Shown here: one piece after another, positions 43,986 through 57,202 of the stretch
Position numbering within the stretch: the first letter of the stretch is position 1
How the letters are laid out: every line of letters begins with the position of its first letter
Source: Vicinamibacterales bacterium
GTDB lineage: Bacteria; Acidobacteriota; Vicinamibacteria; Vicinamibacterales; JAMQPK01
Direction of reading: 5' to 3'
DNA: 64,000 nucleotides
Assembly: GCA_963782595.1 (NCBI GenBank)
Contig: CAWAKJ010000002.1
Coordinates: 1,385,564 to 1,449,563, forward strand
Position numbers and translations under genes: made by a program
The notes under the pieces: model-generated
Databases searched by the model: none
The model's input: the letters and a program-made list of their open reading frames with translations, nothing else
What the model was told of the DNA's origin: nothing

Positions 43986-45809
43986 TTACTCGATGTTGAT
44001 CGTCAGCATGCGCGACCCGACCACGGCGAACTCGGTCGGCAGGTTCCATTCGCCAAGGGTCGCGTTCCGCAGCGGCACGAAGTCGCCGGTGCTGCGGTCG
44101 GCTTCAAATACCCCCAGGACGGACGGAGGCAGCGACGAGAGCGGCTCTCCGCTGATGACGGCACCGGCGTCGGAGGCCAGGAGGCGCACGTAGAGACGGT
44201 TGTTCTTCCGTATGGTGTTCAGCGCGCGCATCAACTGCGGCATGCTGCGCGGCTCGGTCGGTTGCCGCACTTCGCGGCGCTCCCACTGAGCGAGCCTGGT
44301 GCCATCGGAAACCATGACAGACAGCGAGCCGCTCGCGTTCGCCGGTATGTCCAGCGGCACAGTGCGCACAATCTCTTCGCCGCGATAGGTGCGCATCAGC
44401 ACCTTCAACGGCACCGAGCGGCCGGCCCGGGCACGTACGCCATCGAGCCACACGCGCTCGATCGTCGCCGTGCGCGGCTGCTCGGTCGACTGGATCGAGA
44501 GGTCTACGGATTCGATTTGAATCGGTTCGAAGTCGTTGTCGAGCAGGAACGTGAGCGGCGCCATCACCGAGCCGGCGGTATTGAGCGACGCGCTGCTCCC
44601 GGAGAATAGATCTTCGATCTTGATTTCGCCGTGTGATTTGACGTTCATCGTGCCTTTGATGTTGAACGTCGCGGCGCCTGTCTCGCGCTCGTACGAGGTG
44701 AGCGTGCTCAAAATCGACACGTAGGTGAAGAGCGGCGTAAACAACTCGTCGCTGACCACTTTGAACGCGAACTGCTTCTGGAATCCGCGCTCGGACTCGA
44801 GCGAGATCTTGACCGGGATGGTGGCCGGGGCGCTGCCCGTCAGTCCCGCGATCGTTGTCGCTCTGTCCTGGTGGACGGTGCCGACCACATCGCCCAGTGT
44901 GGCGATCTTCATGGACGAGGTCATGCTGGGCAGCAGGGTATGGATGTACGCCTTGGTCATCGGGAATGCGATCGGCCCAAGGTTGAAGAACGGGTGCCCA
45001 AAGGCATATACGCGATTGCCAATGACCTCGGTAACCGTTCCGGTGGCGCCCATATTGAAGTCGCCGCTGACGATGTTGACGCCAATCGCAGAGCCGGGGC
45101 GCAACGGACCGTCGGAGACGGCGGAGGACTGCCCTCCGGCTGCGCCCGCAACCGGCAGGAATCCGTAATCGCGGAACGACGCGCCGAGCATCTCGACGAC
45201 ATCCGGTGAGAATCCGCCGAGGCTCAGCGGAGTGGCGATCGGCCGCAGCATCGTCGCAACCTGTCCGCTGACGCCGTCGCCGAGCACCTGCACGTCGCCC
45301 GAGCGATCCGCGAACGGCCGTACCCAGGACATTGACGCGCGCATGGCGGCGGCCACGCTGTCGCGGGTCACTGGTAATTCAAGCCGCGCGCGTGTGCCAA
45401 TCGGCGCTCGGGGTGTATCGAGCGTCGCAGCGTCGATCATCTCGGCGATCGGGGTGATACCGGCGATTGGTTCCTTTGAAAACGCGCCAAGAGAGTACGA
45501 AACGGCCCCGACGAGCTGACCGTCGATATAGACGGGGCTGCCGCTCATGCCGGCAATGACACCGGTCTGGGCCAGCGGTCCGCCTTCGAGCTTCGCAAGG
45601 ATGAGATCGCGCTTGGGGCCGATCACGTTCTTCAGAACGCCGATGATATGAACCTTGAACTCTTCAATCTTGTCGCCCTGCCAAACGGTGTATCCAGTTC
45701 CGATGGTCCCTGGCTTCACCTGGTCGATCGGATAGTACGGCGGAGCAGCCGGTAAGGACACGACGAGCAGCGCCAGGCTCGTGCAGAGGGCGAAAAGAAG
45801 TCTCTTCAT
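43986..45809 (-). CDS. SpoIVB peptidase S55 domain protein
   Basis: Signal peptide; GVIAGMSGSPVYIDGQLVGAV, AFGHPF. Confidence 0.88.
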   Translation of the reverse strand: MKRLLFALCTSLALLVVSLPAAPPYYPIDQVKPGTIGTGYTVWQGDKIEEFKVHIIGVLKNVIGPKRDLILAKLEGGPLAQTGVIAGMSGSPVYIDGQLVGAVSYSLGAFSKEPIAGITPIAEMIDAATLDTPRAPIGTRARLELPVTRDSVAAAMRASMSWVRPFADRSGDVQVLGDGVSGQVATMLRPIATPLSLGGFSPDVVEMLGASFRDYGFLPVAGAAGGQSSAVSDGPLRPGSAIGVNIVSGDFNMGATGTVTEVIGNRVYAFGHPFFNLGPIAFPMTKAYIHTLLPSMTSSMKIATLGDVVGTVHQDRATTIAGLTGSAPATIPVKISLESERGFQKQFAFKVVSDELFTPLFTYVSILSTLTSYERETGAATFNIKGTMNVKSHGEIKIEDLFSGSSASLNTAGSVMAPLTFLLDNDFEPIQIESVDLSIQSTEQPRTATIERVWLDGVRARAGRSVPLKVLMRTYRGEEIVRTVPLDIPANASGSLSVMVSDGTRLAQWERREVRQPTEPRSMPQLMRALNTIRKNNRLYVRLLASDAGAVISGEPLSSLPPSVLGVFEADRSTGDFVPLRNATLGEWNLPTEFAVVGSRMLTINIE

Positions 45810-45856
45810 GTTGTTGAATCTATTGGGAATCCTTTCTAGTTATAGTGGCACATGTC

Positions 45857-45886
45857 TTGACAATTTCAAAGGCTTCCTGCTACTCT
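45857..45886 (+). promoter_or_regulatory. Sigma-70 promoter of the leader/aromatic superoperon
   Basis: TTGACA-N18-TACTCT with TGn extension. Confidence 0.7.
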
Positions 45887-45895
45887 CGGAGCCTC

Positions 45896-46009
45896 ATGGC
45901 CTCCACCAAACGCGCCCCGCGCCCGATTGTCGTCGCGTTGGGCAAGCTGTCGTTTGGTTTTGGTTGGTGGTATTACGCCCGAACTGAAGGGGCAACTGCC
46001 TTGGCCTGA
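45896..46009 (+). CDS. Putative attenuator leader peptide (37 aa) with a Phe/Trp/Tyr cluster
   Basis: MASTKRAPRPIVVALGKLSFGFGWWYYARTEGATALA*; lies between the promoter and the terminator preceding aroD-aroE. Confidence 0.85.
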   Translation: MASTKRAPRPIVVALGKLSFGFGWWYYARTEGATALA

Positions 46010-46033
46010 GATCGAACGTAACCCGGAGCCAAC

Positions 46034-46072
46034 AAAGCCTCTTCAGCCGACCTGGTTGAAGAGGCTTTTTTT
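46034..46072 (+). terminator. Attenuator terminator hairpin
   Basis: AAAGCCTCTTCAGCC-GACCT-GGTTGAAGAGGC followed by T7, directly before ATG 46073. Confidence 0.9.
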
Positions 46073-47506
46073 ATGTCCAGACCATTGTTCGTCATTACCG
46101 TCGCTGCGCCCACAACGGCGGAGCTGCGCCGCCGTCGCGACGCTGCCTCACAGGCAGGGGCCGATCTGGTCGAGCTGCGGCTGGATTCGGTCAGCGACCC
46201 CGATGTGGCCGGCGCACTGGACGGACGAAAGGGCCCAGTCATCGTCACCTGCCGGCCCGAGTGGGAGGGCGGGGCATATAAAGATGCGGAGGCTGACCGC
46301 CGGAAGATTCTCGAGTGCGCGCTCCAGCAAGGCGCCGAGTACGTCGATCTCGAGTTCAAGGCGGCATTCGCCTCCGAGCTGATTCGGTCGACCGGCGGAC
46401 AGCGCATCGTGTTGTCGTCGCACGACTTTCAGGGTGTACCCGCGGATCTGATCGATCGCGTTCGGGCGATGCGGGCAGCGGGCGCGGAGATCGTCAAGAT
46501 CGCGATTACCGCGCACTCATTAGCCGACAATCTGCACTTGCTGCAACTCGAGCGCGCCCGGAACACGATTTTGATCGGGATGGGGCCCGTGGGCGCACCG
46601 ACTCGCGTGCTGGCGGCGCATTTCCACTCTCACTGGAGCTATGCGGGCGATGCGCACGCGCCCGGGATGATCGCCGCGGCCCGCATGCTCGACGAGTTCA
46701 GATTTCGGGAGGTGACCGATGCGACGTCGATCTACGGCGTCGTCGGCTCGCCACTGTCGCATTCGGTGTCTCCTGCGATGCACAACGCTGCGATCCGGGC
46801 GGCGGGAGTCGATGCCGTGTACCTGCCGCTCGTAGCCTCGAGCGCCGACGACTTCACAATGTTCGCCACGGCGCTGGGGGTGCAGGGCGTCAGCATCACC
46901 ATTCCCTATAAGGTCGATTTGTTTCAGCGTGCAGACGAGGTGGACGAGCTCAGCAGGAAAGTGGGGGCCGTCAACACATATCGGCGTGCGGGCGCCGGAT
47001 GGGAAGCGCGCAATACGGATGTCAGCGGGTTTCTGGCGCCACTCGCTGGCCGGTTGAATCTTCGCGGGGCGCGTGCCGCCATCCTCGGGACGGGCGGTGC
47101 GGCGCGCGCGGTGGCGGTGGCCCTCGGATCGGCAGGTTCCGTGGTGACGGTGTACGGACGCAACCGCGGCAGGGCCAGGGATGTCGCGGCGTTGGCCGGC
47201 GGCGCGGCGTCTGCCTTTCCCGTGGAAGCAAAGAGCTGGGATCTTCTGGTGAATACGACACCGGTCGGGATGTTTCCCAACATCGACGAGACACCATTCG
47301 AAGGAACATTCGACGGCCAGTGTGTGTACGACCTGGTCTACAACCCGATCGACACCCGCCTGCTGAAAGAGGCGGCCGCCGCTGGATGCGAAACGATTGG
47401 CGGACTCGACATGCTGGTCGCGCAGGCCGAGGACCAGTCCGAGTGGTGGCTCGGCAGGCGACCGCCCGCCGGGTTAATGCGTGAAGCCGCAGTTCGACAC
47501 TTATGA
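46073..47506 (+). CDS. aroE: Bifunctional type I 3-dehydroquinate dehydratase / shikimate dehydrogenase
   Basis: ELRLD, TCRPEWEGG, SSHDF, IVKIA (AroD); HSVSPAMHN, SITIPYK, AVNT, NTDVSG, GTGGAARA, DLVYNP (AroE). Confidence 0.93.
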   Translation: MSRPLFVITVAAPTTAELRRRRDAASQAGADLVELRLDSVSDPDVAGALDGRKGPVIVTCRPEWEGGAYKDAEADRRKILECALQQGAEYVDLEFKAAFASELIRSTGGQRIVLSSHDFQGVPADLIDRVRAMRAAGAEIVKIAITAHSLADNLHLLQLERARNTILIGMGPVGAPTRVLAAHFHSHWSYAGDAHAPGMIAAARMLDEFRFREVTDATSIYGVVGSPLSHSVSPAMHNAAIRAAGVDAVYLPLVASSADDFTMFATALGVQGVSITIPYKVDLFQRADEVDELSRKVGAVNTYRRAGAGWEARNTDVSGFLAPLAGRLNLRGARAAILGTGGAARAVAVALGSAGSVVTVYGRNRGRARDVAALAGGAASAFPVEAKSWDLLVNTTPVGMFPNIDETPFEGTFDGQCVYDLVYNPIDTRLLKEAAAAGCETIGGLDMLVAQAEDQSEWWLGRRPPAGLMREAAVRHL

Positions 47507-48981
47507 AACAGACAACGTTCGATACCTTCGTCGAGCTCGCGCAACGAAGCACTTTCGTTCCGGTGGTGAAAGAGCTGGTTGCCGATCTCCTCACGCCGGT
47601 CTCGGCGTTTCTACGTATCGCCGAGCACTCCGACTACGCGTTCCTCCTCGAAAGCGTCGAGGGTGGCGAGCATGTCGGCCGCTATTCGTTCCTGGGCAAG
47701 GATCCGTTCGTGATGCTTCGCTCGCGCGACGGCAAAACCATCGTCGAAAAAGCCGGGGCGACCACCGAACGAGCCGAACCGTTCGTCGACGTCCTGCGGG
47801 CGATGATGGCCGACTTCAGCTCGCCGTTCGTCCCTGAACTGCCCAGATTCACCGGTGGCGCCGTCGGCTATCTTGGTTACGACACGGCCGCGTGGTTCGA
47901 GCCCATTACGCTCCAGAACGACGGTCAGCCGGATCCGGCCTTGCGGGACGAGGCGGGCTTCATGATCTTCGACACCGTGCTCGCGTTCGACCACGTGCAG
48001 CATCGCATCCTCATCATCGCGAACGCCCGAATTACACCGGACGACGATCTCGAGGCGCTGTATCAGTTCGCCTGTACCAAGATCGATTTTCTCGAACGCG
48101 AACTGCGGCGCGATCTGTCCCATCCGCTCCCGAAGCCGGGCCATGCCGTCGAGGTGACGTCAAACGTGTCGCGCGACCGTTTCATCGAGATGGTCAAGAC
48201 CGCGAAGGAATACATCGCCGCCGGCGACGTTTATCAGGTGGTGCTGTCGCAGCGGTTCGAATCGCAGATCACCGCCGACGCCTTCACGGTGTACCGCGCG
48301 CTCCGTCACGTCAATCCATCGCCTTACATGTACTTTCTCCGCATGGGGAAGGTATCGATCGTCGGGTCGTCACCCGAAATGCTCGTCCGCGTGGAAGGTG
48401 GCATGGCGCAGACGCATCCGATTGCGGGAACCCGCCCGCGCGGCAAGAGCGACGAAGAGGATACGCGCCTGGCCGAGGAACTGAAGCGCAACGAGAAGGA
48501 GCGATCGGAGCACGTGATGCTCGTCGATCTCGGGCGCAACGACCTAGGCCGTGTCTCGCAGTTCGGCACGGTGCGCGTCCCGCAGTTCATGGGGCTCGAA
48601 AAATATTCGCACGTGATGCATCTGGTATCGATCGTCGAGGGGAAACTCGCCGACGATCAGGATCGGCTCGATGCGCTGGTGGCCTGTTTTCCGGCGGGGA
48701 CCGTCTCGGGCGCCCCGAAGGTACGCGCGATGGAAATCATCGCGGAGCTCGAGCCCGATCGACGCGGCATCTATGCGGGCGCGGTGGGATACCTCGACTT
48801 CGCCGGCAATCTCGACTTCTGCATCACCATTCGGACGCTCGTGATTACCGGGCATCGTGCGATGGTGCAGGCAGGCGCAGGTATCGTCGCCGATTCCAAT
48901 CCGCAGGCGGAGTATCAGGAAACGCAGGACAAAGCGAAGGCGCTCATCAGGGCGCTCGAACTTGCGCAGGAGGGCCTGTGA
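47503..48981 (+). CDS. trpE: Anthranilate synthase component I
   Basis: LLESVEGG, NPSPYMY, EHVMLVDLGRND, PAGTVSGAPK. Confidence 0.95.
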   Translation: MKQTTFDTFVELAQRSTFVPVVKELVADLLTPVSAFLRIAEHSDYAFLLESVEGGEHVGRYSFLGKDPFVMLRSRDGKTIVEKAGATTERAEPFVDVLRAMMADFSSPFVPELPRFTGGAVGYLGYDTAAWFEPITLQNDGQPDPALRDEAGFMIFDTVLAFDHVQHRILIIANARITPDDDLEALYQFACTKIDFLERELRRDLSHPLPKPGHAVEVTSNVSRDRFIEMVKTAKEYIAAGDVYQVVLSQRFESQITADAFTVYRALRHVNPSPYMYFLRMGKVSIVGSSPEMLVRVEGGMAQTHPIAGTRPRGKSDEEDTRLAEELKRNEKERSEHVMLVDLGRNDLGRVSQFGTVRVPQFMGLEKYSHVMHLVSIVEGKLADDQDRLDALVACFPAGTVSGAPKVRAMEIIAELEPDRRGIYAGAVGYLDFAGNLDFCITIRTLVITGHRAMVQAGAGIVADSNPQAEYQETQDKAKALIRALELAQEGL

Positions 48982-49544
48982 TCCTCGTGATCGACAACTA
49001 CGACTCGTTTACCTACAACCTCGTTCAGTATCTCGGTGAGCTTGGCACGCAGCCGTTCGTGCGCCGGAACAACGAGATCACGCTCGACGAGATTGCGGCG
49101 CTCAATCCCGAACGCATCGTGATCTCGCCCGGGCCGGGGCGGCCGGAGCAGGCGGGCATCACGATCGACGTGATCAAGCGGTTCGGCCCGACGACGCCGC
49201 TGCTGGGCGTCTGCCTGGGACACCAGGCCATTGGCACGGCCTTCGGCGGGTCCGTTGTGCGCGCCAATGCACCGATGCACGGCAAGACGTCGAGCATCAG
49301 CCACGACGGCCTTGGCGTCTTCAAGGGCATCGCGAGCCCGCTCAGTGTGGCGCGCTATCACTCGTTGATCGTAGATCGCAACGGATGGCCAGACGAGCTC
49401 GAGGTGGCGGCTCAAGTGGACTCCGAAGGCACTGTGATGGCCCTGAGGCACCGGACGTTACCGATCCACGGCGTACAGTTTCACCCGGAGTCGATCATGA
49501 CCCGCGAGGGGCAGCATCTTCTTCGCAACTTTCTGAACCTATGA
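48978..49544 (+). CDS. trpG: Anthranilate synthase component II (glutamine amidotransferase)
   Basis: IDNYDSFTYNL, SPGPG, GVCLGHQ, QFHPES. Confidence 0.95.
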   Translation: MILVIDNYDSFTYNLVQYLGELGTQPFVRRNNEITLDEIAALNPERIVISPGPGRPEQAGITIDVIKRFGPTTPLLGVCLGHQAIGTAFGGSVVRANAPMHGKTSSISHDGLGVFKGIASPLSVARYHSLIVDRNGWPDELEVAAQVDSEGTVMALRHRTLPIHGVQFHPESIMTREGQHLLRNFLNL

Positions 49545-50566
49545 CGATCTCCGGGTTGCTCGAAAAATTGATGCGGCGAGAGAACCTCACCGCCGAGGAG
49601 TCGTCCGACGCGATGGACGCCATCATGAGCGGCAACGCCACGTCGGCGCAAATCGGCGCCTTGCTCGTAGGCCTGACGATGAAGGGAGAGCGGCCGGCAG
49701 AAATCGTCGGCCTCGCACGGACGATGCGCGCACATGCCGTGCCGTTGTCGAAACGGTTCGAGGATGTATTCGATACCTGCGGCACCGGCGGCGATCGCTC
49801 GGGGACGTTCAATATCTCGTCGGCGGCCGCGCTCGTGGTCGCCGCAGCCGGTTTGCGCGTGGCGAAGCACGGCAATCGATCCGTGTCGAGCCAATGCGGA
49901 AGCGCAGATGTCTATGAGGCGCTTGGGGTGAACGTGGCCGCAGAACCGGCCGTGGTGGAGCAGTCGCTCGACCAGATCGGGATTGCGTTCTTCTTTGCGC
50001 CGACGTTTCACCCATCGATGCGGCACGCGGCGCCAGTCCGGCGCGAGCTCGCGATACGAACCGCATTCAATCTGCTCGGCCCCTTGACCAATCCAGCCGG
50101 CACCAGATGTCAGCTCGTTGGCGTGCCACACTCGGAGCTCACCGAGCTCATTGCGAAAGCGTTGCTCCTGCTCGGATCCGAGCGCGCATGGGTCGTTCAT
50201 GGCGCCGACGGCATCGACGAGATGTCAACGACCGGTCATACGAAAGTGTCGGAATGTCGGAACGGCGCGATATCGACGTTCTATGTGCACCCGTCCGACT
50301 TTGGAATCCCGAAAGCGGACCGGAGTGCTCTGAAGGGCGCCGATGCGGCCACGAACGCGGCGATTGTCCACGAGATTCTGGCGGGCGAGAAGGGGCCACG
50401 TCGCGATGTCGTGCTGCTGAACGCCGGCGCATCGCTCTTCGTCGGCGGGCGCGCGGCGTCTGTTCGCGAGGGGATCGCGCGGGCCGCCGAGGCCATCGAT
50501 TCGGGAGCCGCCAGGCGCACGCTCGACGCGATGGTTGCAGCATCGAAAGCGGAGCCGGCTGTATGA
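49541..50566 (+). CDS. trpD: Anthranilate phosphoribosyltransferase
   Basis: DTCGTGGD, FNISS, KHGNRSVSS, FNLLGPLTNP. Confidence 0.96.
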   Translation: MTISGLLEKLMRRENLTAEESSDAMDAIMSGNATSAQIGALLVGLTMKGERPAEIVGLARTMRAHAVPLSKRFEDVFDTCGTGGDRSGTFNISSAAALVVAAAGLRVAKHGNRSVSSQCGSADVYEALGVNVAAEPAVVEQSLDQIGIAFFFAPTFHPSMRHAAPVRRELAIRTAFNLLGPLTNPAGTRCQLVGVPHSELTELIAKALLLLGSERAWVVHGADGIDEMSTTGHTKVSECRNGAISTFYVHPSDFGIPKADRSALKGADAATNAAIVHEILAGEKGPRRDVVLLNAGASLFVGGRAASVREGIARAAEAIDSGAARRTLDAMVAASKAEPAV

Positions 50567-51390
50567 CGTCGACGGTGCAGACGCCGGACGTTCTGGCCGC
50601 GATTATCGCCGCGACCCGGCACATGATTTCGGTCCGCTCGGCCGACACGCCGCTCGACGAAATGGAGCGCCGCGCGGCCGCCGCGCAGCCGCGCCCCGGC
50701 CTTTTCCGGCAGGCGCTGGCACGGGACGACCGCATTAACGTGATTGCCGAGTGCAAACGGAGGTCCCCCTCGCGAGGGGTATTGAAGGCGGAGTACGACC
50801 CGGCGACCATTGCCGAAGGGTACGAGCGAGCCGGGGCGGTGGCCATCTCTGTGTTGACCGAGCCGACGTTCTTCGACGGCTCGGTCGATCACCTCGTTGG
50901 CGTGCGTCGCGCGACGCGCCTGCCGATCCTGAGGAAAGACTTCATCGTCGATCGGTACCAAGTGCTGGAGGCAAGGGCGGCCGGCGCAGACGCGATTCTG
51001 TTGATTGTCGCCGGCCTTGATCCCGCCGCCCTGAAGAGCCTGCATCAGACGGCCACCGACGCTGGGCTGGACGTGCTGGTGGAGATTCACGATCTGCACG
51101 AGCTGCCGGTCGCGCTCGATGCGGGCGCGTCGATCATCGGCGTCAACAATCGCAATCTGAGTACGCTGACCGTGAATACGGAGGTCAGCGACGCCGCCGT
51201 GGAGTTGATTCCCGATGCAGTCGTGGCCGTTGCCGAAAGCGGGCTGAACACAGGCAGCGATCTGATGCGGCTGAAGTCTGCCGGGTACGACGCGTTTCTC
51301 ATGGGCGAGCGCTTGATGACAAGCGAGGATCCGGGCGCGGCCCTGGCCAGCCTGTTGAAAGGCAGCGGGGCGAGGGGCCCCCGCGACTAA
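50563..51390 (+). CDS. trpC: Indole-3-glycerol phosphate synthase
   Basis: IAECKRRSPS, ISVLTE, LRKDF, GVNNRNL, AESG. Confidence 0.96.
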   Translation: MTSTVQTPDVLAAIIAATRHMISVRSADTPLDEMERRAAAAQPRPGLFRQALARDDRINVIAECKRRSPSRGVLKAEYDPATIAEGYERAGAVAISVLTEPTFFDGSVDHLVGVRRATRLPILRKDFIVDRYQVLEARAAGADAILLIVAGLDPAALKSLHQTATDAGLDVLVEIHDLHELPVALDAGASIIGVNNRNLSTLTVNTEVSDAAVELIPDAVVAVAESGLNTGSDLMRLKSAGYDAFLMGERLMTSEDPGAALASLLKGSGARGPRD

Positions 51391-51392
51391 AT

Positions 51393-51998
51393 ATGTTCGT
51401 GAAGATCTGTGGCATCACGCGCTCCCAGGATGCGGACCTGGCTGTTGGGCTTGGCGCCAATGCGCTGGGATTTGTGTTCTGGCAGGGCAGTCCACGATAC
51501 CTGGATCCGGCGACGGCGAAAGCGATTGTTGCGAGCGTCCCCGCGTCCGTTTTAAAGGTCGGCGTGTTTGTGGACGAACCGGCCGAAGACGTCTTGCGAA
51601 TCATGGACGACGTCGGGCTCGACGTCGCGCAGCTGCATGGACACGAGAGCCCGGAATTCTGTCGCGCCTTGAACCGTCGGATTTTCAAAGCCGTGGGATT
51701 GGAAGAAGGCGGGACCGTGAACGTCGCCGGATTCGACCCTGACGTGGTGCTCCTGGTGGACGCGCACGATCCCGCGCGGCATGGGGGAACGGGCAGGACG
51801 GCGAACTGGGACTCCGCGCGCGACATCGCCGCCACGCGCCGCACGATTCTCGCCGGCGGCTTGAACGCGGCGAACGTGAAGCTGGCGATTCGCTCGGTGC
51901 GCCCGTTCGGCATCGATGTCTCGTCGGGCGTCGAGTCGTCGCCGGGCGTCAAGGATCCGAACCGGCTGAGGAGCTTCTTCGAGGCACTACATGACTGA
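51393..51998 (+). CDS. trpF: Phosphoribosylanthranilate isomerase
   Basis: VKICGIT, QLHGHE, GGTG, LAGGL, DVSSGVE. Confidence 0.96.
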
Positions 51999-53223
51999 CA
52001 CACGATTCGGCCACCGCGATCCGAACGCGCGCGGCTACTATGGCGACTACGGCGGAAAATTTGTTCCGGAGACCCTGGTCGCGCCGGTTGAAGAGCTCGA
52101 GCGGGCCTATCTCGACGCACGGCACGACAATGACTTTCTGCGCGAGTTCGATCGGCTGCTCGCGCACTATGTCGGCCGTCCCACCCCGGTGTACGAAGTC
52201 ACGCGGTTGAGGGCCGCGCTGCCGAAACCGGCGGCCCGCATGTTCCTGAAGCGCGAGGATCTGGCGCATACGGGCGCGCACAAGATCAACAACGCCCTGG
52301 GACAGGCTCTTCTCGCCAAACGGATGGGCAAGACCCGGGTAATTGCCGAGACCGGCGCCGGGCAGCACGGCGTGGCGACGGCCACCGTCTGCGCGCTCCT
52401 CGGTCTCGAGTGTCACGTCTATATGGGCACCGACGACATGGCGCGACAGGCACTGAATGTCGTGCGCATGCGGCTGCTTGGTGCGACTGTCCGAGGCGTG
52501 TCGGCGGGAAGCCGCACGCTGAAGGACGCGATTAACGAAGCGATGCGCGACTGGGTGACCAATGTCACCGACAGCTACTATCTGCTCGGGTCGGTGCTGG
52601 GTCCGCATCCGTATCCCCTCATGGTTCGCGAATTTCAATCGGTCATCGGACGAGAAGCCCGCGAACAATTTCAGCAGATGAACGGCCGGCTGCCAGACGT
52701 CGTCGTCGCGTGCGTCGGTGGCGGCAGCAACGCGCTCGGTATTTTCGACGCTTTCATCGCCGACACATCCGTTCGCCTCATCGGTGTCGAGGCAGGTGGG
52801 GAAGCGCTCTCGGCCGGCCGTCATGCGGCGCGATTTGCAACCGGGCTCGCCGGCGTCCTCCAGGGCACGCGCACTTACGTGCTGCAGGATGCGAACGGCA
52901 ACATCGAGCTCACGCATTCGATTTCGGCGGGCCTCGACTACGCCGCCGTCGGTCCCGAACACGCGTGGCTCCGCGACATGGGCCGCGCGGAATACTCGTG
53001 GGTTGGCGACGGTGAGGCGCTCGACTCGTTTCAACTGCTGGCGCGCACGGAGGGCATCATTCCAGCGCTCGAGTCGGCGCATGGCGTGGCGTACGCATGC
53101 CGGCTGGCCCAGGAGCTTGGACCTTCGGCGCACGTGCTCGTGAATCTGTCGGGCCGGGGCGACAAGGATGTCGACAGCGTTGCACGGCTCCTCGACGAGA
53201 AAGGGGCTCGTGGCGCCGTCTAG
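51991..53223 (+). CDS. trpB: Tryptophan synthase beta chain
   Basis: [39 protein letters not shown]. Confidence 0.97.
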
Positions 53224-54019
53224 GATCTCGGACGCGTTCAGCCGTATCCGGGCGGAGAACCGCACGGGACTCGTGACGTATGTCACCGCAGGTGATCCCG
53301 ACCTGGATCGTTCGGCCGACATTCTGCGCGCGCTCGATCGCGCCGGCGCCGACGTGCTGGAGGTCGGTATCCCGTTTTCGGAGCCGCTGGCCGACGGCCC
53401 GGTCATTCAGCGCGCGACGGAGCGGGCTCTTGCGGCGGGCACGACCGCGTCGGGCGTGCTCGATCTCGTTGGACGCGTGCGTCCGGGGATAAGGGCGCCG
53501 ATTGTGCTGTTTACCTACGCGAATCCTGTGCTCAGGATGGGCGTCGATGCCTTCGGCGATCGGGCGCGCGCCGCCGGCGTGGACGGTATCCTCGTGCTGG
53601 ACTTGCCGATCGAAGAGGCCGGTGGATTCCGCGACGCTATGGCCGCGCGCGGCATCGACATGATCTTTCTGCTGAGTCCTACCACCACGGATCTTCGTAT
53701 GAACGAAGCGGCAAGGCTGGGGCGGGGCTTTCTCTACGGCATTTCGCGGCTCGGCGTAACCGGGACACGCGACACGGTGGCAGACGGCGCCGAGGCGCTG
53801 GCGGGCCGCATGCGAGGGGCCACCTCGCTGCCGATCGCGTTGGGCTTCGGCATCTCATCGCCCGAACACGTCCGCCAGATTGGACGATTTGCCGATGCGG
53901 CGGTCGTCGGCAGCGGGTTGGTGGGCGTGATCGCGGAAGCGGGAAAAAGCCCCGATCTGGTTGAAAGGGTAGAATCTTACGTTCGCTGGCTTAAGGACGA
54001 GACCCGGCGAGAACATTGA
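53210..54019 (+). CDS. trpA: Tryptophan synthase alpha chain
   Basis: [35 protein letters not shown]. Confidence 0.96.
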
Positions 54020-54354
54020 TGACCATTGACGAGCTCAGACAGCAGATCGATCGGCTCGACGAACGGCTTGTCGAGCTGCTCAGCGAGCGCGCGCACTGCG
54101 CGCTCGAGATAGGCAAGTTGAAGCAATCGCTCGGACTCGAGGTGTACCAGCCCGACCGCGAGGCGGCGGTGCTGCAGCACGTGCGCACCCACGGCAAGCA
54201 TACAGGCAGCCCGCTCGAGGGGGACGCCATCGTGCGGGTCTTCGAACGGATCATCGACGAGGCGCGGCGCATCGAGCGCGCCACGGCTCATAAGACGGCC
54301 CGCCTTCGCGGAGACGCTACGGCGGGGCAAGCCGAAAAAATGGAGGATCGATAG
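54016..54354 (+). CDS. Chorismate mutase (AroQ/type II) with repeat-derived tail
   Basis: LRQQIDRLD..LVELLSERA, IGKLK, YQPDRE. Confidence 0.92.
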   Translation: MMTIDELRQQIDRLDERLVELLSERAHCALEIGKLKQSLGLEVYQPDREAAVLQHVRTHGKHTGSPLEGDAIVRVFERIIDEARRIERATAHKTARLRGDATAGQAEKMEDR

Positions 54355-54356
54355 CC

Positions 54357-55403
54357 ATGGTAGTGGTGATGGAAGAGCGGGCAACCGAGGCGCAGATTGA
54401 AAAAGTGGTCGCGACTCTGGTTGACGCAGGCATGGATGTGCACCGATCGACGGGCGTCAACCGCACGGTCCTCGGTGTCGTAGGAGCGCATCGAGTGGAT
54501 TCCGCATTGATCTCAGTGATGGACGGCGTGCACGAAGTGCTTCGCATCACCGAGCCCTACAAGCTGGCGAGCCGCACCTTCAAGCCAGAAGGCACGGTCA
54601 TCGTCATCGACGATGTGCGGATAGGCGGCGATGAGGTCATCGTGATGGCCGGTCCCTGCTCGGCAGAGAACGAAGAGCAGGTGTTCACCACGGCAGCAGC
54701 GGTGAAGAAGGCGGGCGCGAAGATCTTCCGCGGCGGCGCGTTCAAGCCGCGCAGCTCGCCGTACAGCTTCCAGGGCCTGGGCGAAGACGGCCTGCGGATG
54801 CTGCGCGCGGCCGCTGACCAGCACAACATGAAGCTGGTATCGGAGGTCATGGACGTCAGCCAGATCGAAGTGGTCGGCAAGTACTCGGACATCTATCAGG
54901 TTGGCGCGCGCAACATGCAGAACTTCACCCTGCTGCGCGAGCTCGGCCGGATGCGTAAACCCGTGCTGCTGAAGCGCGGTATCGCGGCGACCATCGAAGA
55001 ATGGCTCCTCTCGGCAGAATACATCCTCGCCGGCGGCAACAACGACGTCATTCTCTGCGAGCGCGGCATCCGCACGTTCGAAAGCTACACGCGGAATACG
55101 CTCGACATCTCCGCGATCCCGGTCATCAAGAAGTTGAGTCATCTGCCGATCATCACGGACCCGAGTCATGCCACCGGCAAACGCAACAAGGTTGCGCCGA
55201 TGGCGCGCGCATCGGTGGCCGCGGGCGCCGACGGCATCATCGTCGAAGTGCACTGCAATCCGGACAAGGCGCTCAGCGACGGCGCGCAATCGATGTTCCC
55301 CGCGCAGTTCGACCGTGTGATGGCCGAGCTGCGCATCATCGCGCCGGCAATCGGCCGCAGCATCTGCGTAGAGCCGGTGGTGAAGCGCGGTTGGGGACGC
55401 TAA
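54357..55403 (+). CDS. aroF: DAHP synthase type I-beta with N-terminal regulatory domain
   Basis: AGPCSAE, GGAFKPRSSPYSFQG, GARNMQNF, LCERGIRTF, DPSH. Confidence 0.95.
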   Translation: MVVVMEERATEAQIEKVVATLVDAGMDVHRSTGVNRTVLGVVGAHRVDSALISVMDGVHEVLRITEPYKLASRTFKPEGTVIVIDDVRIGGDEVIVMAGPCSAENEEQVFTTAAAVKKAGAKIFRGGAFKPRSSPYSFQGLGEDGLRMLRAAADQHNMKLVSEVMDVSQIEVVGKYSDIYQVGARNMQNFTLLRELGRMRKPVLLKRGIAATIEEWLLSAEYILAGGNNDVILCERGIRTFESYTRNTLDISAIPVIKKLSHLPIITDPSHATGKRNKVAPMARASVAAGADGIIVEVHCNPDKALSDGAQSMFPAQFDRVMAELRIIAPAIGRSICVEPVVKRGWGR

Positions 55404-55463: not shown

Positions 55464-56369
55464 GTGTCTGAAGGAAAGCAGTTGCCGGTGCTGCAACCCG
55501 GACGCAGCCCGGGACAGCCGCCGATCTTTCAGCGTGTGGGCATCGTCGGCCTGGGCCTCATCGGAGGATCGATTGCGCTCGCCGCGCGCCAGATCTGGCC
55601 GGACGGGCTCGTCATTGGCGTCGATCGGAAAGACGTGCTCGAGCGCGCCATGGTGCTCCACGCCATCGACGTCGCCGCGGACGACCCGGTCGTCCTCGCC
55701 GAGGCGGATCTCGTGATTCTCGCCGCGCCGATTCAGCAGAATCTCAACCTTCTGCGGGAGCTGCCCGAGAACGTTCCCGGCTCGGCTGTCATCACCGACA
55801 CCGGAAGCACCAAGCGCGAGATGGTGGAGGCGGCCAAATCGCTCCCGGAGCGATTTACGTTCATCGGCGGCCATCCGCTGGGTGGCGCGGCGCGCAGCGG
55901 TATCGAACACGCGCGGCCGGACATGTTTACGGGGCGCCCATGGCTGTTTACCCCGACCAGGGGACACGACATGCAGGCGCTCGACAAGCTCCAATCGTTT
56001 GCCGCCGGACTTGGCGCGGTTCCTCGAAGTCTTTCCCCGGAAGATCACGATCACCTGCTCGCGTTCATCAGCCACCTTCCACAACTCACAGTCAGTGCGT
56101 TGATGCACGTGGTCGGACAAGCCGTCGGCCGGGACGATCTCAGCCTCAGCGGCCGAGGGTTACAGGACACCACGCGCCTGGCCTCGAGCCCGGCGGATAT
56201 ATGGAAGGAAGTCTGCGCGACGAACGCCGATGAAATCGGGTCTGCGCTCGACGCCCTGATTGCAGTGCTGCAGCAATTGCGGGCCGATCTCGAGACGGGG
56301 AAGTCGATCGACGAAGTGTTTGACTCGGCGAACCTGTGGCGGGAAAGACTTCTCTCCAACAAATCGTGA
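55464..56369 (+). CDS. tyrA: Prephenate/arogenate dehydrogenase
   Basis: GLGLIGGS, TDTGSTK, GGHPLGG, HD..LAFISHLP, DTTRLASS. Confidence 0.93.
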   Translation: MSEGKQLPVLQPGRSPGQPPIFQRVGIVGLGLIGGSIALAARQIWPDGLVIGVDRKDVLERAMVLHAIDVAADDPVVLAEADLVILAAPIQQNLNLLRELPENVPGSAVITDTGSTKREMVEAAKSLPERFTFIGGHPLGGAARSGIEHARPDMFTGRPWLFTPTRGHDMQALDKLQSFAAGLGAVPRSLSPEDHDHLLAFISHLPQLTVSALMHVVGQAVGRDDLSLSGRGLQDTTRLASSPADIWKEVCATNADEIGSALDALIAVLQQLRADLETGKSIDEVFDSANLWRERLLSNKS

Positions 56370-56503
56370 TTTGCTGTCTCGACGCAGAGGCGCAAAGCCG
56401 CAGAGCTCTTTTCCACCCGGACCACGATGGCGCGCGTGTCACGGCTGGCGCTCTCCTACCGGCGGCATTCGAGTCCCTCTTCGCCTGCCTTCTACACAGA
56501 GTG

Positions 56504-56658
56504 CTCGGAGCTGTGCATCGACGTCGCGCAAGTGGCGCGCGAGGAGAAGACCAACAGTCGAATATCAAGAGCCCGGATCATGCAGCTCTTGTATTCGGCT
56601 GTTGGTCTTCTCCTCGCGTGGGCCGCGTCCGCGGCCCACGACGTCGATGCCTCCGACG
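56504..56658. repeat. Nested inverted-repeat element (34-bp stem plus flanking stems)
   Basis: 56538-56572 pairs with 56585-56618; 56515-56526 with 56639-56650; internal GTGGGCCGCG/CGCGGCCCAC hairpin. Confidence 0.75.
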
Positions 56659-56748
56659 GGAGAACGCTGCGCACCTACGGAGGCTGTCACGCTGCTGGTG
56701 TTCATCGCGTCTTCGTGTCTTCGTGTCCTTCGTGTTATAGCTTTCGTG

Positions 56749-57147
56749 GTGAGCATCAACATTCCAGCGGCTGTCGTGAGCGACATGTTGGCGCATGCGC
56801 GTACGGAGGCGCCCCGCGAGTGCTGCGGATTGCTGGTCGGGGCGGCCGGCTCGGTGGTGCGCAGCGTGCGCACGAGGAACCTCGACCCGAGCGCGGCGAG
56901 ATATCTCATCGATCCTGAAGATCACTTCAACACCGTGCGCGCAGCGCGCGCCGACGGACTCGAGATCATCGGTGCGTACCACTCGCACGTGGCAACCGCG
57001 CCTGTTCCATCACAGACAGACATCGCAGAGGCGACCAGCGGCCCGGATTTTTTCTACGTGATTGTGTCGCTCGAGAACGCGGAGGCACGCGCGTATCGAA
57101 TCGACGCGGGCGTGTACGAGCGTGTCGCGCTGAGCGTTCGGGCCTAG
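56749..57147 (+). CDS. JAB/MPN (M67) metallopeptidase, Mec/CysO-cysteine peptidase-like
   Basis: PRECCGLL, GAYHSH....PSQTD JAMM motif; start uncertain. Confidence 0.9.
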   Translation: MSINIPAAVVSDMLAHARTEAPRECCGLLVGAAGSVVRSVRTRNLDPSAARYLIDPEDHFNTVRAARADGLEIIGAYHSHVATAPVPSQTDIAEATSGPDFFYVIVSLENAEARAYRIDAGVYERVALSVRA

Positions 57148-57150
57148 TAC

Positions 57151-57202
57151 GTAGCGTCCGGCTTTAGCCGGACCGACACGTCCGGCTGAAGCCGGACACT
57201 AC
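57151..57202. repeat. GTAG-type REP doublet
   Basis: GTAGCGTCCGGCTTTAGCCGGAC...GTCCGGCTGAAGCCGGACACTAC. Confidence 0.8.

Follow-up and report, generated by a model that had tools for sequence, protein, structure and literature searches.

The window, by which we mean the whole 64 kb stretch of DNA analysed here, carries a predicted aromatic amino-acid operon of ~11 kb with 12 ORFs, consisting of aroD-aroE, trpEGDCFBA, the genes for chorismate mutase and DAHP synthase, tyrA, and a JAB-domain ORF (Table 1). An earlier note on this DNA had listed aroD-aroE, trpE, G, D, C, F, B and A, chorismate mutase, DAHP synthase and prephenate dehydrogenase as the downstream genes, and all of these were found. 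The operon covers steps required for all three aromatic amino acids. Calling it an entire aromatic superoperon was nevertheless an overstatement, since the sole match to prephenate dehydratase (pheA) in the genome lies ~678 kb away, and no match to further common-pathway enzymes was found among the 12 ORFs scanned. A coarse genome-wide scan for uORFs followed by terminators re-found a candidate upstream of pheA and chose the wrong frame at the aroD-aroE leader locus; it gave no clear His or Leu leaders, and was too coarse to show their absence.

Table 1 Positions (in the window) of the leader elements and of the genes downstream
Feature	Position	Strand	Basis and details
Promoter	45858-45887	+	-35 TTGACA 45858-45863, 18-nt spacer, -10 TACTCT 45882-45887, TGC before -10
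Leader ORF (uORF), 37 codons + TGA	45896-46009	+	In-frame homologues in 30/30 loci
Regulatory codon cluster	45953-45976	+	TTT GGT TTT GGT TGG TGG TAT TAC = F G F G W W Y Y
Antiterminator 5' strand CTGAAGGGGC	45984-45993	+	Inside leader ORF; pairing, geometry, folds
Upper antiterminator hairpin	45997-46034	+	TG..TTGGCCTG (45997-46008, including stop codon) x CGG.GCCAACA (46024-46034)
Intrinsic terminator	46034-46072	+	5' arm 46034-46048, loop 46049-46053, 3' arm 46054-46068, T-run to 46072
Likely Shine-Dalgarno sequence of aroD-aroE	46058-46064	+	GAAGAGG in terminator 3' arm, 8 nt before ATG; putative function
aroD-aroE fusion (type I dehydroquinase + shikimate dehydrogenase)	46073-47506	+	Pfam PF01487, PF08501, PF18317
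trp genes, whole block	47503-54019	+	Pfam matches, ORFs
trpE	47503-48981	+	Pfam match, ORF
trpG	48978-49544	+	Pfam match, ORF
trpD	ends 50566	+	Pfam match, ORF; start not fixed
trpC	ends 51390	+	Pfam match, ORF; start not fixed
trpF	51393-51998	+	Pfam match, ORF
trpB	51991-53223	+	Pfam match, ORF
trpA	ends 54019	+	Pfam match, ORF; start not fixed
Chorismate mutase	54016-54354	+	Pfam PF01817
DAHP synthase with N-terminal ferredoxin-like domain	54357-55403	+	PF00793 with PF18152
Prephenate dehydrogenase, tyrA	55464-56369	+	PF02153 with PF20463
JAB-domain ORF	ends 57147	+	Last ORF before closing hairpin
Terminator-like hairpin closing the gene row	57156-57197	+	Hairpin scan

The promoter, the uORF, the terminator and the antiterminator complement named in the earlier note could all be read directly from the sequence at their positions. 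A consensus promoter scan did not pick up this promoter, because TACTCT matches TATAAT at only three of six positions. The arrangement TTGAC(A/G)-N18-TAnnnT was present in all 29 distinct sequences from relatives, with an invariant 18-nt spacer. The leader ATG lies 9 nt past the -10 hexamer, a distance that is the same in 14 of the 29 sequences and from which the leader mRNA is predicted to be probably leaderless or nearly so. The window's genus lacks a Shine-Dalgarno sequence before the leader AUG, so that translation of the uORF would depend on leaderless initiation. The uORF encodes MASTKRAPRPIVVALGKLSFGFGWWYYARTEGATALA followed by the stop, and its only aromatic residues are F at codons 20 and 22, W at codons 24 and 25, and Y at codons 26 and 27. 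This cluster exceeds chance; of ~128,000 windows of eight codons taken from all six frames of the 64 kb, it alone contains six aromatic codons, and the share of aromatic codons in 12 genes of the window is 5.7% (3941 codons). The leader region also folds better than shuffled sequences (z = -3.67). A 260-nt contig spans 45905-46163, and RNA as the source of its library is a guess, DNA being equally possible.

The terminator hairpin has 16 pairs according to the hairpin scan, a folding energy of -24.4 kcal/mol and seven T residues, and, as the earlier note had it, stands immediately before aroD-aroE, with the T-run ending at 46072 and the ATG at 46073. The gene upstream of the leader is divergently oriented and the terminator therefore closes no other gene. 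Its pairing is well kept in relatives (93.8% of alignment cells paired), and at least 118 genome records contain exact matches to the terminator pattern. The proposed burial of GAAGAGG within the 3' arm is visible in the sequence, the role of this motif as the Shine-Dalgarno sequence of aroD-aroE being putative.

The antiterminator strand lies within the uORF, with 7 nt between it and the last Tyr codon and 13 nt between it and the stop codon. It can pair with GCCTCTTCAG (46037-46046) in the 5' arm of the terminator at 10 of 10 positions, one of them G-U, with an energy of -15.8 kcal/mol. This antiterminator, which had been proposed in the earlier note, held up in relatives, where 96.2% of 290 alignment cells were paired versus at most 60% when the partner was slid along; the observed pairing was attained in 88 of 500 column shuffles. 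Changes between A and G occurred in the strand at three positions, essentially only opposite U, and positions opposite C or G were near-invariant. Covariation proper was scarce because the helices are nearly invariant. An upper antiterminator helix, which includes the stop codon, was formed in every stalled-ribosome fold of the window and was paired in 76.7% of alignment cells versus at most 50.4% with a slid partner, with little covariation.

In computed folds with the ribosome masked, a check that the earlier note had put forward, the nascent RNA formed an antiterminator of at least 7 bp in 87 of 91 sequences when a ribosome was placed at the last Trp codon. Five of the 96 sequences were omitted from these folds, namely L076, an unrelated Mucilaginibacter terminator, L094, in which the leader frame is shifted, and L041, L063 and L065, in which the codon cluster picked automatically was not the right one or lay at a distance from the strand. 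In the window, stalls at F20, W24, W25 and Y26 gave an antiterminator of 10 bp, and a stall at Y27 gave 7 bp. When folded without a ribosome, before the 3' arm is made, the antiterminator was still preferred in 70 of 91 sequences, including the window.

A uORF with an aromatic codon cluster and a terminator were found in front of aroD-aroE in all 30 loci of relatives examined, which were taken upstream of aroD-aroE and came from 24 species of the window's genus and from other families of the order. A covariance model, R1, was searched against 49 further genomes from this order and matched over its full length in 47. This model also flagged contigs that are apparently binned under the wrong taxon. 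Using the terminator pattern alone, 80 loci were collected, of which 77 lie just upstream of aroD-aroE and one upstream of trpE; these 78 have a W-containing uORF in all cases except the frame-shifted L094. The sequences are related and these 80 were chosen by their terminator pattern, so that the counts are not independent. L003 was dropped since it is identical to L002, and L076 was left out of the fold, codon and strand-variation counts. Two genomes marked as unpublished, G202 and G225, were included in a single tally, and none of the present results depends on them.

The geometry of the leaders is regular. The last aromatic codon precedes the antiterminator strand by 7 nt in 57 of 96 leaders and by 10 nt in 19. 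The gap between the strand and the stop codon is 13 nt in 66 of the 96, and at most 13 nt in 93, being longer in only three; it is shorter in 26, and the stop falls inside the strand in five. The N-terminal parts of the leaders vary freely in length and sequence. W/Y-rich uORFs also lie upstream in nine loci from other classes of the phylum, where chorismate mutase follows trpE-A in six and DAHP synthase is located alongside in eight.

The frame of the uORF is the richest of the three frames in aromatic codons in 94 of 95 sequences. Of 94 distinct sequences, 92 have two or more W codons, 87 have one or more for Y and 56 one or more for F, and all three residues are present in 48. Phe codons are absent from 38 of the 94 sequences and are variable in position where present, yet they occur in all 24 loci of the window's genus, 22 of which have two. 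Judged by these codons, Trp and Tyr are the core of the leader, and Phe is lineage-specific but kept in the window's genus. The earlier note had proposed trivalent sensing, which these codons support in part. The synonymous codons used in the leaders are TAT (70) and TAC (59) for Tyr, and TTT (63) and TTC (24) for Phe; the window's own genes favour TAC (43 vs 23) and TTC (89 vs 40).

The prevalence of W raises the alternative of an attenuator that senses the Trp codons alone; those for Tyr and Phe would then be passengers, or would be retained owing to peptide or RNA chemistry. W is the only one of the residues found in nearly all leaders, F is frequently missing, and seven of the 12 ORFs in the operon are trp genes. 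Moreover, the available text of PMC11802643 reports that a Tyr codon in the Corynebacterium glutamicum AroR leader is not accompanied by a response to Tyr, so that the presence of a codon is no proof of sensing. On the other hand, an aromatic codon stands four positions ahead of the antiterminator strand in 83 of the 94 sequences (Y in 64, F in 12, W in seven), with both Tyr codons in use, and F stands in place of Y among sister sequences, as in WWWRYVF and WWWRFAF. Furthermore, the Tyr codons fall outside the identified helices, and the operon also holds tyrA, chorismate mutase and DAHP synthase. Sensing of Trp alone seems unlikely to us.

We consider it likely that the leader is a ribosome-dependent, that is, leader-peptide, transcription attenuator acting on the 12-ORF aro-trp operon. 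This is the reading of the earlier note, and the retention of both uORF and terminator in 30 of 30 loci speaks for it. The analysis shows the sequence elements with their conservation and spacing, and predicts the alternative folds; that the uORF is translated, that ribosomes stall on it and that each amino acid evokes a response is what we infer from sequence. The transcript would start a few bases ahead of the leader AUG, with translation of the uORF under way while the polymerase advances. During starvation, scarce charged tRNA-Trp or tRNA-Tyr would cause the ribosome to stall in codons 20-27, and in the window's genus scarce charged tRNA-Phe would probably stall it as well. The stalled ribosome would leave the strand CUGAAGGGGC, 7 nt further on, free to pair with the 5' arm of the terminator once this has been made, giving a long hairpin (45984-46046). 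With this hairpin in place no terminator would form, and the 3' arm with the likely ribosome-binding site of aroD-aroE would be left open. When amino acids are plentiful, fast decoding would bring the ribosome to the stop codon 13 nt beyond the strand, where it would cover the G+C-rich half of the strand; the 5' arm of the terminator would then pair with the 3' arm, and transcription would end at 46072. An assumed ribosome footprint of roughly 12-15 nt on either side of the P site underlies the default state as well as the part given to the terminating ribosome.

The earlier note had proposed a different protector (anti-antiterminator), a helix between the FGFG codons and a segment upstream of the terminator. 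Such pairing, TTGGTTTTGG with CCGGAGCCAA, is possible over 10 positions, three of them G-U. However, the energy of this duplex, -13.7 kcal/mol, is no better than that with shuffled partners (mean -15.7 kcal/mol, 35 of 50 shuffles as good), and therefore we did not adopt this protector for the genus. There was also no convincing covariation in this helix, 75.6% of its pairs being formed and mostly invariant within the genus. A local hairpin between the antiterminator strand and GCCTT was also rejected as protector; its variable pair was an A/C mismatch nine times and G/C four times, with no covariation. Relatives of the WRWYW type do have a strong helix of the protector kind, between the Trp-codon region and a segment just past the stop codon. 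The limit of 13 nt on the stop-codon distance in nearly all leaders suggests that the terminating ribosome acts as protector, and in the window's genus the ribosome at the stop codon probably takes this role.

The fixed position of the stop codon could also mean that the peptide itself matters, either because the nascent chain, on sensing a free amino acid, halts the ribosome at the stop, or because the released peptide acts in trans. The first version has a precedent in TnaC, which causes arrest in this way, and the arrest peptide would here consist of the aromatic block plus a conserved tail, A-[T/S]-A-L-A-stop. The tail A-x-A-L-A-stop and the 13-nt stop distance are both retained in 66 of 96 leaders with some synonymous change, the Leu codon being TTG in 43 and CTG in nine cases, and arrest at the stop would place the ribosome over the antiterminator strand, resulting in the same regulatory sign. 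The tail nucleotides, however, make up the upper antiterminator helix, which accounts for their conservation without a function of the peptide. In addition, the five leaders that stop inside the antiterminator strand have no tail at all, and the N-terminal parts are free in length and sequence. A trans-acting peptide, peTrpL of Sinorhizobium, has been published (available text of PMC7298713), and a function of the peptide in either form nevertheless appears very improbable for the present leader.

Finally, the switch could be set by an RNA-binding protein, an uncharged tRNA or a small ligand, the ORF being incidental. Consistent with this, leaders of the genus have no Shine-Dalgarno sequence before the AUG, and the trp genes of B. 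subtilis, which are nested in an aromatic operon, use TRAP. A scan of 45700-46200 against Rfam at E-values up to 10, however, gave no family at threshold; the best match, Phe_leader (22.2 bits vs 55), covered the terminator only and the rest were chance matches. Trp_leader (RF00513) gave no match at E up to 10 in this region. T-box and riboswitch readings were dropped, as no model of either kind matched 45700-46200 at E up to 10. Despite divergence of the N-terminal part, the leaders retain the open frame, its aromatic codons and the place of the stop, and the distance between promoter and AUG suits leaderless initiation. We regard a switch set without the ribosome as very improbable.

A ribosome-dependent attenuator would have implications beyond this locus. 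It is conceivable, although we put this forward tentatively and lean slightly against it, that the leaders form a phylum-wide, undescribed attenuator family of Acidobacteriota, located on a supraoperon of trp, chorismate mutase and DAHP synthase genes. Its often leaderless uORF would integrate the charging of tRNA-Trp and tRNA-Tyr, and in some lineages, including the window's genus, of tRNA-Phe, and a terminating ribosome, fixed 13 nt beyond the strand, would serve as anti-antiterminator instead of a 'segment 1'. Should the reading as a ribosome-dependent attenuator hold, an abundant and poorly cultured soil phylum would gain a clear, testable regulatory element for its aromatic amino-acid operon. 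The leader would also be a natural example of a single uORF that reads two or three related amino acids, and its highly regular spacing would allow the stalling model to be tested quantitatively. With model R1, the start of the operon could be annotated in metagenome bins. To our knowledge, nearly all work on leader-peptide attenuation, a textbook mechanism, has been done in Proteobacteria and Actinobacteria, and published authors wrote that they were aware of no leader-peptide system beyond these two groups. A literature search that covered few subscription journals gave no description of this leader in Acidobacteriota. The mechanism is classical, and its mixed-codon version in Acidobacteriota appears to be undescribed.

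A close classical counterpart is E. coli trpL, with which the leader shares a short uORF with adjacent Trp codons. In trpL, as would be the case here, where the ribosome stands decides between an intrinsic terminator immediately in front of the first structural gene and an alternative helix that involves the terminator's 5' arm. Unlike trpL, to which it has no sequence or model similarity, the present leader has mixed W, Y and F codons and an antiterminator strand that lies within the ORF and ends 13 nt ahead of its stop. Moreover, no convincing 'segment 1' was found in this genus, the leader mRNA is probably leaderless, and the operon adds common-pathway and Tyr-branch genes. Multivalent leaders are known from E. 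coli ilvL and thrL, which respond to branched-chain amino acids and to Thr/Ile, respectively; here, too, one uORF carries codons for several amino acids that depend on the operon, but ilvL and thrL contain many more regulatory codons and have protector stems. The aromatic supraoperon of B. subtilis likewise contains trp genes among aro genes and tyrA in one transcription unit behind a terminator/antiterminator leader, but there the Trp-activated RNA-binding protein TRAP, and not a translating ribosome, sets the switch. Mixed aromatic codons are found in the aroR leader of C. glutamicum, for which the original study is reportedly that of Neshat et al. in 2014. According to the available text of PMC11802643, this leader lies upstream of aroF, contains Phe-Tyr-Phe and responds to Phe but not to Tyr, so that in both cases a mixed aromatic leader peptide attenuates, or in the present case would attenuate, an operon encoding DAHP synthase; the aroR leader, however, has no Trp codons, the organism possessing a separate trpL, and it belongs to the Actinobacteria and is unrelated in sequence. 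Leader peptides at the very start of the transcript have a parallel in another phylum, in Deinococcus deserti, where attenuator uORFs, one of them on trpEGD, begin at or 1 nt past the transcription start, and for which the available text of PMC4007540 does not describe a mixed aromatic content such as that of the leader presented here.

The region upstream of aroD-aroE contains all the elements described in an earlier note, i.e. a promoter, a short upstream open reading frame (uORF), a terminator and an antiterminator, and we consider it highly likely that it is a genuine, strongly conserved leader-peptide attenuator. The six aromatic codons of the uORF all lie within eight codons and none occur elsewhere in it, a density that is unique among the approximately 128,000 windows of eight codons in the 64 kb, where the aromatic codon background of the window's own genes is 5.7%. 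The T-run is directly followed by the next gene's ATG (46073), and since the upstream gene lies on the opposite strand, the terminator ends no gene.

Features of the leader region and of its gene row (window coordinates)
Feature	Position	Strand	Remarks
Upstream gene	43986-45809	-	opposite strand
-35 TTGACA	45858-45863	+	read in sequence; 18-nt spacer before -10
-10 TACTCT	45882-45887	+	read in sequence
uORF, 37 codons, MASTKRAPRPIVVALGKLSFGFGWWYYARTEGATALA	45896-46009	+	read in sequence
Antiterminator, CTGAAGGGGC x GCCTCTTCAG	45984-45993 x 46037-46046	+	10/10 positions paired, -15.8 kcal/mol
Terminator hairpin	46034-46068	+	terminator scan; T-run to 46072; fold -24.4 kcal/mol
Prok-JAB ORF	56260-57147		start codon not fixed
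Closing terminator-like hairpin	57156-57197		hairpin scan

When relatives were compared for the uORF and its aromatic codons, both were present upstream of aroD-aroE, with a stop codon and the same terminator, in 30 of 30 loci inspected, these being the best 30 of an aroD-aroE protein search that gave a match in 40 of 41 related genomes. Within the window's genus the peptide ends in ...SFGFGWWYYA(Q/R)TEGATALA, and the clusters in the order's other families include WWWYYY, FFAGFWWYY, WWWWRYEY, WWWY, WWW, WYW and WPCRWAW. A covariance model of leader and terminator, built from 29 distinct sequences and searched against 150 further genomes of the class, matched at full length in 47 of the 49 other genomes of the order (partial in one, none in one), and in 10 of 101 genomes of the class's other orders, there with the terminator part only. 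Scanning 185,579 species genomes for the exact terminator pattern gave at least 118 records, and those listed were nearly all labelled Vicinamibacterales, Vicinamibacteria or Acidobacteriota. Among the matches listed, 80 loci were placed: 77 just upstream of aroD-aroE, one upstream of trpE, one too short to tell and one unrelated (Mucilaginibacter). Five loci (L037, L042, L072, L082 and L110) are labelled Acidimicrobiia, Bifidobacterium breve, Bifidobacteriaceae or Betaproteobacteria, yet carry this leader; their aroD-aroE is 50-81% identical to that of the window, and these contigs look like they were assigned to the wrong taxon in binning.

The promoter, TTGAC(A/G)-N18-TAnnnT, was found in 29 of 29 sequences, and the distance from the -10 hexamer to the ATG is 9 nt in 14 of them, including the window. 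Assuming the usual distance from -10 to start, transcription in the window would start 0-3 nt ahead of the AUG; Deinococcus deserti has documented leaderless leader peptides (PMC4007540). In 94 of 95 sequences, the reading frame that runs uninterrupted to the conserved stop is also the richest in aromatic codons over the 36 nt preceding the 5' strand of the antiterminator (hereafter the strand). The N-terminal parts of the uORF vary freely, both in sequence and in length (30-49 codons, counted from the first ATG), which is typical of leader peptides. In one locus, L094, the WWYY codons are out of frame with the conserved tail AEEAGAMH, reflecting either an assembly frameshift or a decayed leader.

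The earlier note called the leader trivalent, for Phe, Trp and Tyr. Codons were counted in the 12 codons preceding the strand in 94 distinct sequences, which are mutually related and partly chosen by their terminator pattern. At least two Trp codons occur in 92 of the 94 leaders and at least one Tyr codon in 87; at least one Phe codon is present in only 56, and all three amino acids together in 48. The arrangement is regular: with codons numbered backwards from the strand, Trp stands at codon 6 in 58 leaders and at codon 5 in 67, codon 4 is Tyr in 64, Phe in 12 and Trp in 7, and codon 3 is Trp in 36 and Tyr in 28. Tyr and Phe are exchanged between sister leaders (WWWRYVF versus WWWRFAF), which speaks for selection of an aromatic codon other than Trp at that position. 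Synonymous use in the leaders was TAT 70, TAC 59, TTT 63 and TTC 24, and the window's own genes favour TAC and TTC, a rough comparison, the leaders being related and from other genomes. Phe codons at two further-upstream positions characterise the window's genus, with at least one Phe in 24 of 24 loci and two in 22; a few other lineages likewise have upstream Phe codons (FFAGFWWYY, FFAWWYY). Trp and Tyr are very probably the signals of the attenuator, and Phe is a plausible third signal within the window's genus.

The antiterminator proposed in the earlier note proved right. Its pairing is kept in 96.2% of 290 alignment cells, compared to 60% at best with the partner slid out of register, and the strand varies between A and G at three positions facing a U in the partner, while it is nearly fixed when facing C or G. 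Terminator pairing is kept in 93.8% of cells. With both helices nearly invariant, genuine compensatory changes are scarce. The last aromatic codon lies 7 nt from the strand in 57 of 96 sequences and 10 nt in 19. From strand end to stop codon the distance is 13 nt in 66, 10 nt in 7, 8 nt in 2 and 7 nt in 12 of the 96; it exceeds 13 nt in only three, and in five the stop codon lies inside the strand. If a ribosome is taken to cover roughly 12-15 nt on each side of the P site, then with this spacing a stall at any codon of the cluster would keep 7 nt or more of the strand accessible, and a ribosome at the stop would cover the strand's G+C-rich 3' half. With the nascent RNA folded up to the terminator loop, an antiterminator of at least 7 bp was predicted in 87 of 91 sequences with the ribosome at the last Trp codon, in 82 with it at the last aromatic codon, and in 70 without any ribosome. 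In the window, the antiterminator is predicted to be a long hairpin (45984-46046), in the upper part of which TTGGCCTG, including the stop codon, pairs with the segment preceding the terminator. This predicted upper helix explains the strong conservation of the peptide tail A-x-A-L-A-stop.

The protector helix suggested between the FGFG codons and CCGGAGCCAA could form physically, and a shifted version of it occurs in the full-length fold, but it found no support: the duplex energy in the window is -13.7 versus a mean of -15.7 for shuffled partners, 35 of 50 shuffles were equally good, and covariation in this helix was lacking in the alignment of relatives. Relatives of the WRWYW type show strong complementarity between the Trp-codon region GCGTGGCGGTGG and CCGCCACCGCGC, just past the stop codon, with a mean duplex energy in that group of -21.0 versus -15.0 when partners are swapped in from the window's group, thus this helix may be a classical 'segment 1' in some lineages. 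For the window's genus we infer that the main anti-antiterminator is the terminating ribosome, in which case an untranslated leader would tend toward read-through. The sequence GAAGAGG in the 3' arm of the terminator, 8 nt before the ATG, is paired in the predicted terminator fold and free in the antiterminator fold, making a second, translational layer of control, as proposed before, plausible in the window; it does not apply generally, since the start codon lies 7-19 nt past the T-run in several relatives.

Pfam identified, downstream of the leader, the aroD-aroE fusion, trpE, trpG, trpD, trpC, trpF, trpB and trpA, followed by a type II chorismate mutase, a DAHP synthase with a ferredoxin-like N-terminal domain, prephenate dehydrogenase and a JAB-domain ORF, all in a single direction and overlapping or nearly adjoining. 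Given these genes, the operon covers the pathway's first step and two of its middle steps, the Trp branch in full and, on the Phe/Tyr side, the branch entry and the Tyr step. It is a large aro/trp/tyr operon, but 'entire aromatic superoperon' was an overstatement: the genome's sole prephenate dehydratase match lies ~678 kb away, and the remaining common-pathway enzymes had no match among the 12 ORFs scanned. The Prok-JAB ORF also belongs to this gene row, lying between tyrA and the closing terminator.

A candidate second attenuator lies upstream of pheA (L149:1240-1500; G000:C2, about 752200-752460, in the window's own genome). It has a TTGACA promoter, a uORF (MTRRPVLSFFVTVVVTVTGITRMPVDELRML) and a strong hairpin with T-run, followed by the sole prephenate dehydratase gene. 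Of 24 other genomes of the genus, 22 have kept this DNA, and the conserved peptide core is TVVVTVTG, i.e. Val/Thr and not Phe, which is odd for a pheA leader. Between this terminator and pheA lies a short GT-rich element (L149:1466-1497, query positions 231-262), which occurs at dozens of places in genomes of the genus, G000 included, and is thus apparently a short dispersed repeat. Four loci in another order of the class (L155, L156, L157 and L159) have the same kind of terminator before aroD-aroE; their uORF stops before the strand and reads (Y)WRPxFHHxYH by eye, i.e. one Trp, Phe and Tyr and three or four His codons, and these leaders may differ in codon mix and be laid out more classically. 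Other classes of the phylum have W/Y-rich uORFs (L166, L168, L170-L174, L177, L179, L180-L188), such as AWRYWYW, YAWRYWSW, WRWWYNY, YFWCWY and GWWWW, ahead of trpE, DAHP synthase or aroD-aroE, and several of these are accompanied by a terminator-like hairpin. The gene order trpEGDCFBA / chorismate mutase / DAHP synthase recurs there: among nine loci, chorismate mutase follows trpE-A in six and DAHP synthase lies alongside in eight. From these few loci, mixed Trp/Tyr leaders on a trp/chorismate mutase/DAHP synthase operon seem to characterise the phylum.

No Rfam family covers the window's leader element, and no earlier description of it was found in the literature searched, most of it outside subscription journals. 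Its mechanism is the same as that of classical attenuators, and multivalent leaders are known for ilv and thr. A mixed aromatic leader, AroR (Phe-Tyr-Phe), has been described upstream of aroF in C. glutamicum and is reported to respond to Phe only (review PMC11802643). The element of the window is an attenuator of known mechanism that appears to be new in its form, in an under-studied phylum.
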